A stretch of 64,000 nucleotides of DNA, taken from the IMG/VR virus record IMGVR_UViG_3300031949_000002; one strand, given 5' to 3'. The DNA is from a virus. The notes beneath the pieces were generated by a model. It saw nothing but the letters and a program-made list of their open reading frames with translations, did no database searches and had not been told where the DNA came from. The position numbers were made by a program, and so were the translations under genes. Positions 23,285-49,569 of this stretch are shown here, piece by piece; the stretch's first letter is position 1; each line of letters starts with the position of its first letter.

Positions 23285-23710
23285 CTACCGCTCGGACTTC
23301 CCAGACCTGTCGATCCTTCGTCCCTCTATCCTCGCCTCGACCCAGCCCCGAGTCCAATCCGAAACTGGTCCGATCTCCTTTACGATCGATGTGCTATAGA
23401 TCGCCCTTTCATTCTCGACCCAGGAGATCGACATCCCGATCACTTTTTCAGGCGCTACGACGTGCCCAAGCTCATCCGGAGTGATATCGACGAGTTGAAA
23501 CTCGTGTCCCGGGACCAACCTGAAGAAGTACCCGATCCGGAACTTCGGGTTCGGGAATCCATGGAAGTCGTAGACCCGATCGCGACCAGCGGGGCGAACA
23601 ATAAATACGATGTCTCCAGAGATCTGGTCGAAAACGATCTCCTCGCCTCGCTCCGTCACGATTCGCCAGAGCGAGGCGCCCCACCGTTTTTCCTTCGGGA
23701 TCTTCTTCAT
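23285..23710 (-). CDS. Hypothetical protein, N-terminal EKRWG motif
   Basis: MKKIPKEKRWG. Confidence 0.65.
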   Translation of the reverse strand: MKKIPKEKRWGASLWRIVTERGEEIVFDQISGDIVFIVRPAGRDRVYDFHGFPNPKFRIGYFFRLVPGHEFQLVDITPDELGHVVAPEKVIGMSISWVENERAIYSTSIVKEIGPVSDWTRGWVEARIEGRRIDRSGKSER

Positions 23711-24060
23711 GTCTCTCCGTAGACGGCATCTAGCCACTTCTCGACACGTTCCGGCGTAGGGCTGTACGCCCACATGATGAGGGCGATATGGCGACGCGTT
23801 GGTTCCCCGCCTTCCCAAAGCGGCTCTCCGCGCAGGTTAACCTGGGCCATGTGCCTCTTGATGAAGTTGTTTCTCTTCTCGGCCCAAGCATCCGGCACCC
23901 TGTCCGGATCTCCCCCGGACCTACGATAGACCGCAACGAACCCCCGCCCTGACCGCGCGACCTCGGAGACGCCCAAGTCTCGCGCGATCGGAACCGTGTC
24001 GTTGAGGATCGAAAGCGGAAGCCATCGGTATCGCACTCTATAGCGCTCCTTTCGGCGCAC
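23707..24060 (-). CDS. Conserved-looking hypothetical protein
   Basis: KRNNFIKRHMAQ..PTRRHIALIMWAYSP. Confidence 0.7.
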   Translation of the reverse strand: MRRKERYRVRYRWLPLSILNDTVPIARDLGVSEVARSGRGFVAVYRRSGGDPDRVPDAWAEKRNNFIKRHMAQVNLRGEPLWEGGEPTRRHIALIMWAYSPTPERVEKWLDAVYGET

Positions 24061-24433
24061 GAATCATGTAGTCGCTTCCGGGTTCTTCCGGCTTGAACCC
24101 GAACGTCTTGTACCAGCGGATCAGTTCTGCTCTCTTCATCTTTTTCCCACCGCCAGGCGTTGGGGCCATCGGCACCGCGTTGAGACTGAGCGTCACGCCG
24201 AGCCGATCCGCGCGATCGACGAGAACCTGCATCGCGGCTCTTCCCCCGCCTCTTGCGAGCGCACGGACCTGATCGATACTGACGTGGTTCGGCCCCCAGA
24301 ACTGCGCAGCCAACGGCTTGAGGACTACCCCAGCTAATAAATCCTGCGATCGTTCATCGATCAGAAGCCCCTCGCGAGGATTCATAGGGTTCTCGTAGAA
24401 TCCGTCGAGCAGTTCTTCCAGCAGTTCGTTCAT
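24038..24433 (-). CDS. GNAT-like acetyltransferase
   Basis: RGGGRAAMQVL..VTLSLNA..LIRWYKTFGF. Confidence 0.6.
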   Translation of the reverse strand: MNELLEELLDGFYENPMNPREGLLIDERSQDLLAGVVLKPLAAQFWGPNHVSIDQVRALARGGGRAAMQVLVDRADRLGVTLSLNAVPMAPTPGGGKKMKRAELIRWYKTFGFKPEEPGSDYMIRAPKGAL

Positions 24434-24753
24434 CGGTTTTTCAGGTGCCTCCAGATCGCGTGAAGCGTGACCCCGGCGAAGAGGCTCGTACCTACCGCGG
24501 TCAGGATGTCCCGCACAGGTCCTTCCGAAAGAAAGAACCGCGTACCGATCATCAAGAGCGAGATCGAGCCTCCGACCGTTTCGATCGCCACGATAGCCGG
24601 GTTCGGAGCGGCTACCTCGGACAATGAGCTTGCCCTGCGCGGCAATTGCGACAGGTACACTACGCCCTCCTCTTCTTTCGTGGCGCGAGAAGCTTCTCCC
24701 ATGAGGTACTGATCATCGCACCCGCTCCCCTTCGACCCAGACTTCCTCCGCAA
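24430..24753 (-). CDS. Small membrane protein
   Basis: Two hydrophobic helices, basic tail. Confidence 0.55.
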   Translation of the reverse strand: MRRKSGSKGSGCDDQYLMGEASRATKEEEGVVYLSQLPRRASSLSEVAAPNPAIVAIETVGGSISLLMIGTRFFLSEGPVRDILTAVGTSLFAGVTLHAIWRHLKNR

Positions 24754-25393
24754 GGTCGATCAGTACGCGGCCCGACACGACAAGCTCGCATTCCGACTCG
24801 CATCGCCTCATCGCTGCTATTGCCTGCCCTCCCCACTTCTCCATGTGCGCCTGGACCCGAGCAAGTTCCTCCGCGATAAGAGACTTTGCGTACCGCACCA
24901 GCTTCGTCGTTCTTTTTACGTTGCCTACGACCTCTCCGTAGACATCGAGGAGATCTCCAGAGCGCATTCGGGCGTCGAGTTCCGTCACGAGGCGCTCCGC
25001 GTCGAAGACGAAGCCGTTCATCAGAAGCGCGTTCCGTCCAGCCTGACTGAGCCGGTGCCATGCAGACTCGGAAGACACGAGATCGTAGGGCCATCCACCG
25101 ACCGCGAAGAATACGAGATCCATGTCCCCGGCGATGAGATCCAGGCATTCGAACCTGGACCCCGTGTCGGCCCACACCTTGCCCATCCGAAGATCCTTCA
25201 GCTTCTCGTTGGCAAGCGCGCGAAGCGCCTTTCCGATCGGGCTGTCGCCGTAGTGCATTTGCAAGTTAAGAGAGCACGCCTCCGCGATCTCGCGCCGGTC
25301 CACCCGCTCAGACGCAGGCGTCAGGAAGCCCTGAGCGGCGATCGCCTGGACCGTCCTCTCTCCTCCCCGGACCCAGTGGTACGCCCCGATCAT
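24713..25393 (-). CDS. Hypothetical protein
   Basis: MIGAYHW..GFLTP; GAGGAGG RBS. Confidence 0.6.
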   Translation of the reverse strand: MIGAYHWVRGGERTVQAIAAQGFLTPASERVDRREIAEACSLNLQMHYGDSPIGKALRALANEKLKDLRMGKVWADTGSRFECLDLIAGDMDLVFFAVGGWPYDLVSSESAWHRLSQAGRNALLMNGFVFDAERLVTELDARMRSGDLLDVYGEVVGNVKRTTKLVRYAKSLIAEELARVQAHMEKWGGQAIAAMRRCESECELVVSGRVLIDLAEEVWVEGERVR

Positions 25394-25818
25394 GCACCCC
25401 TCCTCGTTACGACGTAGTCGCCAAGGCCCATTCTCTCGACCAGTTCGTACAGGTAGGAGAAGAAGCGGGCGTACTCTTCGTCGGTCCAGAACTCGTCGGT
25501 GACGACCCGCAAAGGAAGGAAGAACCGGGCCTTGTACCCACGCCCGCGCGGGTCCCGCTTCCACGGGATCTGCCAGTCATACTCGACCTTCTGAATCAGA
25601 TGCCAGATCGCGTCCATGACTCGCTTGCGCTCTTCGACGTCGATTCCCCATCGTTTCTCAGGCTTTCGTACCGTGACCGGAACGTTGAAAACGACATCGA
25701 CGGAGACCGCCACGTCGTAATTCGGATTCCCGCGCCGGATCACGTCGATCCGGAATAGGCCCGGACTGACGCTATCCGCCACAGCCTGAATTCGTTCGCG
25801 CTGTTCCTCGGATCTCAT
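25390..25818 (-). CDS. EKRWG-family paralogue 1
   Basis: AVADSVSPGLFRIDV..KPEKRWG. Confidence 0.7.
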   Translation of the reverse strand: MRSEEQRERIQAVADSVSPGLFRIDVIRRGNPNYDVAVSVDVVFNVPVTVRKPEKRWGIDVEERKRVMDAIWHLIQKVEYDWQIPWKRDPRGRGYKARFFLPLRVVTDEFWTDEEYARFFSYLYELVERMGLGDYVVTRRGA

Positions 25819-48244: not shown

Positions 48245-48546
48245 CCCTCCGCAATCCACCGCTTCCCGATCTTCCGGAGATCGGGGATCACGCCGTCGTA
48301 CATCTTGAGAAACCTGTCAAGATCCGTGATCCCGTACTCCACTTCCAGGTCGATCACCGCCGTCCCGCGCTCCGCCCGGATCTGTCCACGGGTCTCGGCC
48401 CCTGAAAGCGAGAGCTTCAGAAGCTTCGCCTCTCGCTTCGTCAACATGACGAACTCAAAGATATCCGGATCGACGCCGAATTCCATCGCGAGGTCCGGAT
48501 CCAAGATCTCGAACTGGATCCAGTAAAGCTTCTTTTCTTCCGTCAC
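48241..48546 (-). CDS. Hypothetical protein
   Basis: Coupled to neighbours. Confidence 0.55.
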   Translation of the reverse strand: MTEEKKLYWIQFEILDPDLAMEFGVDPDIFEFVMLTKREAKLLKLSLSGAETRGQIRAERGTAVIDLEVEYGITDLDRFLKMYDGVIPDLRKIGKRWIAEG

Positions 48547-48548
48547 GG

Positions 48549-48926
48549 TCAGAACGCCTTCATTTGCGTGATTATCAGCGCCCTGTGAATGATGCGTCGA
48601 TTCTCCAGGATGATCGTGTACACGTCGCCCCAGTCCGGCGGAGGCTCCGACCACCGCTTCTCTCCGAAGACCGGAGCGATGGGCGTCCAACTCTGCTTCA
48701 CGATCTTGACGTCGATTGGAAGATGCGCCCAATCTCCTTCACCCTCGTCAAGCTTCCACCAGATCGTAAAGGCCACACCGCTGAAGATCCCCACGCTTGG
48801 GTCATGCTCGGTCGAGATGAAGTCGGTCCGAAGGACGCCGCCCTTCTCCAGAACGGCATCGACATCGATGTCATCGATCAGTTCTCGGAAGCCCTTCTCG
48901 ACCTTCGCAAGCTCGGTTGAAATCAT
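48549..48926 (-). CDS. Hypothetical protein with EKRWS
   Basis: PVFGEKRWSEPP. Confidence 0.6.
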   Translation of the reverse strand: MISTELAKVEKGFRELIDDIDVDAVLEKGGVLRTDFISTEHDPSVGIFSGVAFTIWWKLDEGEGDWAHLPIDVKIVKQSWTPIAPVFGEKRWSEPPPDWGDVYTIILENRRIIHRALIITQMKAF

Positions 48927-48930
48927 TCGC

Positions 48931-49569
48931 TTACCACCTCTTCTCGATCGACCGCTCGTCCGGCATTGCGCGCTCCGAGACCAGTTCGGTGTAGACCTCG
49001 TAGTCCTCCGGATTACGCCCCTCTCTCTCCATGATCAGCCTGTACGAGTTCAGCAACTGCTTCGGGTAGCTCGCGAGAATCCCCCAGCGGTGTATCTCTT
49101 TTCCTCTCACCGCGTACAGGATCGATCCAGCGACGTGGACGAGACCTCTGAGCCACCCGCCCCTGGAGATCTCCTTCGTAGGTTCACTGCCAAAATACCG
49201 ATCCGTGATCGCGGCCTGAGCGTCCTCGACGACCTCGTCCCAGATGTGTGCGGCTTTGCCTGGAATACCCTCGACCCGAAGCTCGTAGTCCGGATTATCC
49301 GGATCATCGCCGAGTTCCTCCGGCCGCATCCTGCGAGCCCACTTCTCGAAGATCTCGATCGCGTCGGCTTCTCCCTGGCTTTCGCTCGTGTAGTCGCTGT
49401 GGCTCGCGGTCAGGACGGCGACGCGCAACGGAACGTGCCCGGACCCGGCATAGAGCATGAAGCCCCACCAGCCATCGTAGATGCCGCGAAGCAGATCGGG
49501 CCGTGAAATCTCGTCTTCCTCTGCGTTGAGGTAGACGTGAGCATCCGCTTGACGAGTCTCTTCGAACAT
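48931..49569 (-). CDS. Hypothetical protein ending in EKRW
   Basis: ..ERSIEKRW-stop. Confidence 0.65.
   Translation of the reverse strand: MFEETRQADAHVYLNAEEDEISRPDLLRGIYDGWWGFMLYAGSGHVPLRVAVLTASHSDYTSESQGEADAIEIFEKWARRMRPEELGDDPDNPDYELRVEGIPGKAAHIWDEVVEDAQAAITDRYFGSEPTKEISRGGWLRGLVHVAGSILYAVRGKEIHRWGILASYPKQLLNSYRLIMEREGRNPEDYEVYTELVSERAMPDERSIEKRW

Follow-up and report, generated by a model that had tools for sequence, protein, structure and literature searches.

Why do 14 proteins of one viral genome, several of them with no other likeness, share a peptide of five residues? The question is raised by a 64,000-nucleotide stretch of the IMG/VR record IMGVR_UViG_3300031949_000002 (the whole of which is hereafter called the window), in which the sequence Glu-Lys-Arg-Trp, mostly followed by Gly, recurs in the products of a series of small genes. 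A sequence-only reading of the window had listed these copies and suggested that the motif, here called EKRW(G), is a shared address tag. The recurrence is real and statistically robust, and is partly inflated by eight copies that represent a single family. We propose that a single partner recognises EKRW(G) as a portable peptide, most probably as a tag for non-covalent docking or sorting, and put the chances of this reading at about even.

Distribution and enrichment of the motif

A six-frame regular-expression scan of the window identified 14 copies of EK[RGQ]W, in agreement with the number and positions given by the sequence-only reading. All copies are located on the minus strand, in frame with open reading frames (ORFs), and span positions 23681-48945. 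The plus strand contains no copy, and none occurs in any frame outside the 23.6-49 kb interval. The carrier genes are listed below.

23285..23710 (-): 141-residue protein with N-terminal MKKIPKEKRWG; motif codons 23681-23692
25390..29209 (-): eight tandem paralogues of about 130-170 residues each, with an internal motif at 25648, 26113, 26556, 27002 (EKGW), 27677, 28135 (EKQW), 28569 and 29030
30487..30894 (-): 135-residue protein with N-terminal MRRIPEEKRWP; motif codons 30865-30876; gene called in the ENA record
31419..31853 (-): 144-residue protein with C-terminal ...GIPSEKRWGSRR and chain end ...IPSEKRWGSRR*; motif codons 31434-31445
46162..46902 (-): 246-residue protein with the motif at residues 29-33 (KGKHEKRWGSP); codons 46807-46818
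48549..48926 (-): 125-residue protein with the motif at residues 89-93 (TPIAPVFGEKRWS); codons 48651-48662
48931..49569 (-): 212-residue protein, the chain of which ends at ...SIEKRW*; codons 48934-48945

Twelve copies read EKRW, one EKGW and one EKQW, and E, K and W are present without exception. The residue following W is G in 11 copies and P, S or a stop in one copy each; thus, of 13 copies with a next residue, 12 have a small one. A Pro is usually found 2-8 residues upstream of E, often along with at least one basic residue, as in the form [IVT]P-x(1-6)-EKRW-G.

The location of the motif within the proteins varies. As described by the sequence-only reading, the copies of the 23285 and 30487 genes are N-terminal (residues 7-10), those of the 31419 and 48931 genes are C-terminal, and the eight copies in the 25390-29209 region are internal. 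Both N-terminal carriers open with M-[KR]-[KR]-I-P-x-E-K-R-W, and the start codon of the 23285 gene overlaps the upstream stop codon (ATGA). The copies of the 46162 and 48549 genes had also been classed as internal, and they are; that of the 46162 gene, however, becomes N-proximal (residues 29-32) once the start is corrected to 46902. This start, which forms a TGATG overlap, is supported by the presence of an identical 246-residue protein in the ESM Atlas. Overall, the motif is found no more than 33 residues from a terminus in five of the six carriers outside the paralogue family, and in two of the three variant carriers described below.

Enrichment was measured against residue-shuffled proteomes, by using the incomplete gene calls of the window. 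In this set, EK[RGQ]W, EKRW and EKRWG were observed 12, 10 and 8 times, respectively, compared with shuffled means of 0.28, 0.14 and 0.009. The comparison with shuffled ORFs, which the sequence-only reading had recommended, therefore places the motif far above background. When seven of the eight paralogues are removed, EKRW is found in 7 proteins and is the top-surprise 4-mer of the proteome, with a -log10P of 10.1; the best 4-mer over 300 shuffles reached a maximum of 7.4, with a 95th percentile of 5.8. These statistics exclude a chance origin of the EKRW recurrence. A full-text literature search for EKRW and EKRWG retrieved no relevant match.

Carrier proteins and constraint on the peptide

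The eight tandem paralogues are all linked by blastp, with E values ranging from 2e-47 to marginal for the remotest pairs, and feature 22-29% identity to the reference copy. In contrast, when the six other carriers are compared among themselves or with the family profile by blastp and hhalign, the alignments extend over the motif alone (5-18 residues). Two of these carriers, tested by hhalign against the paralogue profile, gave probabilities of 0.7% and 8.8%, and the 48549 protein aligns over 8 columns. On these comparisons, one shared domain is excluded for six or more carriers. The earlier description of many carriers as otherwise unrelated consequently holds for these six, which have no other similarity, but not for the remaining eight of the 14, which form one paralogous family. 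Independent carriers number six plus one family, rather than 14. Neither a background frequency nor a domain common to all carriers was found, yet more than half of the copies (8/14) share one domain by descent.

The 31419 and 30487 genes were considered as fission halves of one paralogue-like gene, and show no likeness beyond the motif. A frameshift joining 48549-48926 to 48241-48732 was also discarded, as the two genes merely abut.

Database searches returned few matches. A Pfam scan of all 14 carriers revealed none above the cut-off. In a word-indexed search of 5.8 billion clusters, the 23285 protein matched itself alone, and the outcome was the same for a neighbouring 686-residue protein. 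The 48931 and 46162 proteins occur in the ESM Atlas without feature matches, and the Atlas models are poor, with predicted local distance difference test (pLDDT) values of 0.35-0.38. When the paralogue alignment was searched as a profile against 1.8 billion representatives, the matches were the copies of the window itself and two spurious ones; by this measure, the paralogue family is an orphan. Megablast and blastn searches of phage records gave no match for the DNA of the window, and searches of IMG/VR by protein and by exact 56-mer gave none either.

Besides the initial Met, the invariant columns of the 8-sequence paralogue alignment are one Phe and the E, K, W and G of the motif, which is the sole invariant block of the family. 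AlphaFold2 models of two members, built on this alignment, have predicted template modelling scores of 0.76 and 0.79. The predicted topology is α1-β1-β2-linker-α2-β3-β4-α3, with the motif at the end of the β2-α2 linker. This linker has the lowest internal pLDDT in both models (10-residue blocks of 54 and 59, versus 80-97 for most flanking elements), and residues 65-67 of the first model fall below 50. Foldseek comparisons of the paralogue model with PDB, AFDB clusters and BFVD gave E values of at least 6e-3, and no relative stands out. The best matches in a wide VIA-align search (Z 6.5) are generic α/β sandwiches, such as DCoH, T3SS-chaperone/YbjN-like proteins and the MotA C-terminal domain, and are below the level at which relatives are distinguished. 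A further member of the array is truncated:

27192-27440 (-): ninth paralogue of 82 residues, motif lost

This protein retains helix α1 and the β-hairpin, features ...RFAEIRAEA... in place of EKRWG, and has lost the C-terminal half.

Three variant carriers featuring [GA]KRW[FI] were also identified, all within the same gene blocks as the other carriers:

48241..48546 (-): variant carrier of 101 residues, with C-terminal ...IPDLRKIGKRWIAEG*
44408..44812 (-): variant carrier of 134 residues, with GAKRWFAPDDE 13 residues from the C-terminus
35612..36301 (-): member of the phrog_6186 family, with the motif-like stretch LPEKLHGKYAGKRWFGPE at about residues 122-140

The phrog_6186 family is widespread in phages and prophages, and 372 matches to it were obtained. 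In a 120-sequence alignment, the motif-like stretch corresponds to about 16 residues inserted in the copy of this phage alone, and the 119 homologues, which lack it, read ...G-K-[RK]-[IL]-T-K-K at the insertion site. The resulting motif-like stretch, P...KYAGKRWFGP, resembles P...RKYAEKRWG of two paralogues, and the paralogues p25855 and p26283 have flanks (KYAEKRWGA) in common with the insertion. This is what a portable module gained in a surface segment would be expected to look like. Residues invariant in phrog_6186 proteins include D..P-R, H..Y.LGD and DHSG, among others. Among the contigs of phrog_6186 relatives, L001, which encodes the closest relative (52% identity), was scanned for the motif and shows no enrichment. 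A single N-terminal EKKWP was seen, in a 69-residue ORF (582-791, plus strand) that opens with MAIKKKPKVIIEKKWPS, recalling MRRIPEEKRWP; one such case is within chance expectation.

The sequence-only reading had argued from synonymous codon variation that selection acts on the peptide, and both codon usage and the low information at third positions bear this out. E is encoded by GAA or GAG, K by AAA or AAG, and R by all six codons (AGA, AGG, CGA, CGC, CGG and CGT), including switches between AGR and CGN. In the codons of E, K and W, information content is 2 bits at the first two positions; it is low at third positions, and the DNA flanking the motif displays neither conservation nor structure. 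Because third positions and the Arg codon family vary and the flanking DNA is unconserved, the constraint is on the peptide.

The conserved unit could alternatively be a DNA or RNA element (GARAARMGNTGG), for example a binding site or a regulatory RNA motif. All copies are indeed found on one strand, GARAARMGNTGG is a purine-rich 12-mer, and Arg AGR codons are mildly over-used (7/12, versus 28% in the block; p = 0.046), although mostly inside the paralogues, which are not independent. However, the reading frame is identical in all copies, variation is concentrated at synonymous sites and extends to AGR/CGN switches, and no nucleotide conservation or structure is seen in the flanks. Frame-lock and synonymous variation rule against such an element, which we rejected as extremely improbable. 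A role of the motif as an internal start or ribosome-binding site was also rejected as a general explanation, as it holds solely for the 48931 copy. In this gene, the terminal codons (AAGAGGTGG-TAA; AAG AGG TGG) also serve the next gene as its Shine-Dalgarno sequence, which lies 8 nt before the ATG at 48926.

The motif might also have no common reader. It would then have a structural role in the domain of the paralogues, and the copies in the six other carriers would be remnants of small-segment gene conversion or recombination from this family, or the result of chance combined with a ribosome-binding-site constraint. The presence of eight copies in one family, the similarity of the p25855 and p26283 flanks to the phrog_6186 insertion, and the Shine-Dalgarno function of the 48931 copy are all in line with this explanation. 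Functionless remnants, however, would not retain E-K-R-W while all synonymous sites diverged, and chance is excluded by the statistics. Moreover, a motif at residue 7 or at the chain end cannot belong to the core of a common fold, and hhalign gives no extended similarity. We regard this explanation as quite improbable.

A proposed docking or sorting tag and its alternatives

All carriers are located downstream of one of two identical promoter-like DNA elements, each of which heads a gene block:

37157..37182 (-): 26-nt AT-rich element with TACAAT, heading the gene block from 37142 to 23285
49943..49968 (-): second, identical copy of the element (26 nt), at the head of the block that extends leftwards from 49918

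The element occurs in two copies only in the window and in none of 100 shuffles, and each copy precedes the first start codon of its block by about 14-24 nt. This arrangement makes co-regulation of the carriers plausible.

Codon turnover, the lack of other similarity, placement at termini or in a low-confidence loop, the phrog_6186 insertion and the shared upstream elements all fit a portable tag. At least seven unrelated protein families would display EKRW(G), at chain ends or on a flexible loop, and one shared partner would bind it as a common ligand. The tag would thereby gather small, co-expressed phage proteins at a single receptor, which may be the capsid interior, some hub or assembly of the phage, or a hub of the host. 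The most economical form of this reading is docking or sorting, as it accommodates N-terminal, C-terminal, loop and chain-terminal copies. We infer both that there is a single reader and that it docks the peptide rather than cleaving or modifying it. With confidence somewhat short of even, we further consider that EKRW(G) may be a position-independent five-residue address code, grafted repeatedly on termini and surface loops, by which one reader collects co-expressed effectors. The insertion into phrog_6186, a widespread and conserved family, would be a fresh instance of such grafting.

Several observations weigh against a portable docking tag. No reader protein, be it a capsid, a protease, an E2 or any other protein, turned up; the address tag suggested by the sequence-only reading is supported in part, as its generic form, a selected peptide acting as a shared tag, fits the evidence. 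The three [GA]KRW[FI] variants, if they belong to the set, do without the E common to all other copies. Two paralogues have G or Q in place of R, and in three carriers the position of G is taken by P, S or a stop. In the predicted paralogue fold, W and G directly precede helix α2 and could be structural, as an N-cap or an anchor. Common descent accounts for eight of the 14 copies, and the 48931 copy is not fully independent, because it overlaps the ribosome-binding site of the next gene. Lastly, the paralogue family and the 23285 protein appear to have no homologue outside the contig, and conservation of the motif is seen within one genome.

Pfam and PHROGs searches of neighbouring genes recognised phrog_6186, UQ_con, Pkinase with TPR, and weak matches to domains of unknown function. 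Pfam and PHROGs scans of the window proteins submitted recognised no capsid or protease gene, the protease search covering 46 proteins, and no terminase was seen in the window. Genes relevant to the identity of a reader or to the genomic context are the following:

39375-41147 (-): Ser/Thr (Hanks-type) kinase (Pkinase, 3e-43) with C-terminal TPR (TPR_1, TPR_2 and TPR_8 at residues ~400-576)
51911-52510 (-): UQ_con (E2-like) protein, 2.3 kb upstream of the first block
22082-22519 (-): SNase-family nuclease
19681-20361 (+): Asp/Arg-hydroxylase-family protein (ENA record)

The kinase gene lies alongside carriers in the block headed by the 49943 element. Its TPR region is a candidate reader, being the sole domain in the blocks with known peptide-binding capacity. 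The EEVD peptides read by TPR domains and the W-acidic motifs read by kinesin light chain are short exposed peptides, located at termini or in loops, which unrelated proteins easily gain and which are recognised by a peptide-binding domain. The presence of a TPR-containing Ser/Thr kinase gene in the carriers' block recalls this type of recognition, as well as viral mimicry of short linear motifs (SLiMs). In contrast, the EKRW sequence differs from both EEVD and W-acidic motifs. SLiM networks are known from eukaryotic viruses and, to our knowledge, have barely been described for phages; an EKRW(G) address code would amount to such a network.

Tags shared by diverse proteins are known in phage T4. 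The T4 internal proteins (IPI-III and Alt), otherwise diverse, have only a short capsid targeting sequence (CTS) in common (PMC3012670, PMC5694885). As with the CTS, which is 10-20 residues long and routes proteins to one destination, a short peptide is the sole common element of diverse small phage proteins, and two EKRW carriers have it within the first 11 residues. The CTS occurs strictly at N-termini and terminates in the gp21 site (L/I-x-E); EKRW, in contrast, is also found at C-termini and in loops, and is unrelated in sequence. N-proximal copies occur only in the 23285 and 30487 proteins (residues 7-11) and in the 46162 protein (residues 29-33). In addition, the motif ends in W-G, not x-E, and none of the 46 window proteins scanned matches a protease family. 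By analogy, the EKRW set seems best viewed as a new form of the shared tag of T4, independent of position in the chain.

Prohead-protease motifs of giant phages, S/A/G-x-E in phiKZ and A-x-E in SPN3US, occur in many proteins, including diverged paralogue sets (PMC5694885). EKRW resembles them in being short and in its recurrence across many proteins of one giant phage, diverged paralogues among them. However, these motifs consist of three residues ending in Glu and are found in identified head proteins, whereas EKRW comprises five residues centred on Trp and is encoded in an auxiliary-looking region. The invariant pattern is E-K-x-W, in which W, not Glu, precedes the small residue, and S/A/G-x-E is not recovered.

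Trimming of virion proteins at a shared motif by one viral protease is known from the heads of T4, phiKZ and SPN3US, and from adenovirus cores. EKRW(G) might be such a maturation site, cut between W and G, at which one viral protease would trim many virion proteins and remove the N-terminal copies as propeptides of 10-32 residues. A small residue follows W in 12 of 13 copies (G in 11, S in one), and the 48931 protein ends precisely at W, as a cleavage product would. The location of the motif at residues 7-11 in two carriers corresponds to the propeptide length of the T4 CTS (10-20 residues, PMC5694885), and paralogous head proteins of giant phages are processed at a common motif (PMC5694885). 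Set against this are the lack of a recognised protease or capsid gene in the window, the Pro following W in one carrier, and a motif unlike the known phage sites A/S/G-x-E and L/I-x-E. Trimming of 0 or 4 C-terminal residues would have no obvious purpose, and a cut in the paralogues would divide one compact predicted domain. The context (kinase, E2, nuclease and tRNAs) also looks auxiliary rather than structural. Proteolytic maturation is in our view unlikely.

The motif could instead be the acceptor or recognition site of a covalent modifier acting on Lys, which is invariant, or else on Arg or Trp. Candidate enzymes are the E2-like protein, the product of a neighbouring ADP-ribosyltransferase-like gene and the hydroxylase. 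Recognition by a stand-alone E2 has an analogy in Ubc9, which directly reads ψ-K-x-E. The invariance of E, K and W in 14/14 copies, the UQ_con gene 2.3 kb upstream of the first block, the hydroxylase-family gene at ~19.7-20.4 kb, and the apparently exposed placement of the motif, which suits an enzyme substrate, are consistent with modification. On the other hand, no ubiquitin-like protein, E1 or deconjugase was seen in the window, E is replaced by G or A in the three variant carriers, and Arg is not invariant. Proximity, moreover, is the sole tie between the enzymes and the carriers. We hold modification to be decidedly unlikely.

Two other known systems were compared with the proposed docking tag. 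Encapsulin cargo-loading peptides are short N- or C-terminal tags that direct unrelated cargo into an HK97-fold shell. In contrast with these tags, which have a hydrophobic, Gly-rich consensus, EKRW differs in sequence, and no encapsulin-like shell gene adjoins the carriers. WXG100 proteins, substrates of type VII secretion, were rejected, as they feature a W-x-G turn in a helical hairpin of ~100 residues, whereas W-G has no spacer in the carriers and the paralogues are predicted to adopt an α/β sandwich fold.

Genomic setting and significance

The window has a GC content of about 60% and contains 38 tRNA genes and a tmRNA gene, as detected by ARAGORN. It also encodes two TnpB/Cas12-like proteins and an IscB-type RRXRR-HNH protein, and most other ORFs have no family. 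From ~52.5 kb down to 22 kb, nearly all genes are on the minus strand and are tightly packed, with stop and start codons that often overlap. According to the protein index, genes of the window are located on contigs of 151,788 and 341,371 bp (ENA assembly, ERZ27256953 for the 341-kb contig), and the window is part of a 341-kb genome. Its DNA was found in one sequencing run, of soil metagenome DNA, which is probably the source; RNA runs are not listed. The number of tRNA genes and the many orphans are both in keeping with a giant soil phage.

The tmRNA gene (50217-50565, minus strand; tag AEHKLLAAA) maps to the interval that separates the E2 region from the first block. A permuted tmRNA call by the same program (20322-20758, minus strand) overlaps tRNA genes and is probably spurious. 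A second shared peptide, R-K-G-D-F-[LI] followed by a Gly-rich linker, was observed in four minus-strand ORFs, at 56502, 60302, 61022 and 61454. It is N-terminal (M-x-RKGDF) in three of the four ORFs, and the 61454 copy is preceded by open frame. These ORFs flank an ORF of 825 residues at 56767-59244.

Shared peptide tags are the handle by which the T4 internal proteins were understood, and were later engineered for the packaging of foreign cargo. If EKRW(G) has a docking or sorting role, it would mark out a functional group of orphan proteins of a giant phage, which cannot otherwise be annotated. The tag, as a 12-mer peptide, would be a direct biochemical bait for the hub, protease or modifier, and EKRW(G) could become a portable targeting tag, usable at either end of a protein or in a loop. 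More generally, phage proteomes would be able to evolve SLiM networks by repeated motif gain, and the phrog_6186 insertion would be an example of such a gain caught in the act.

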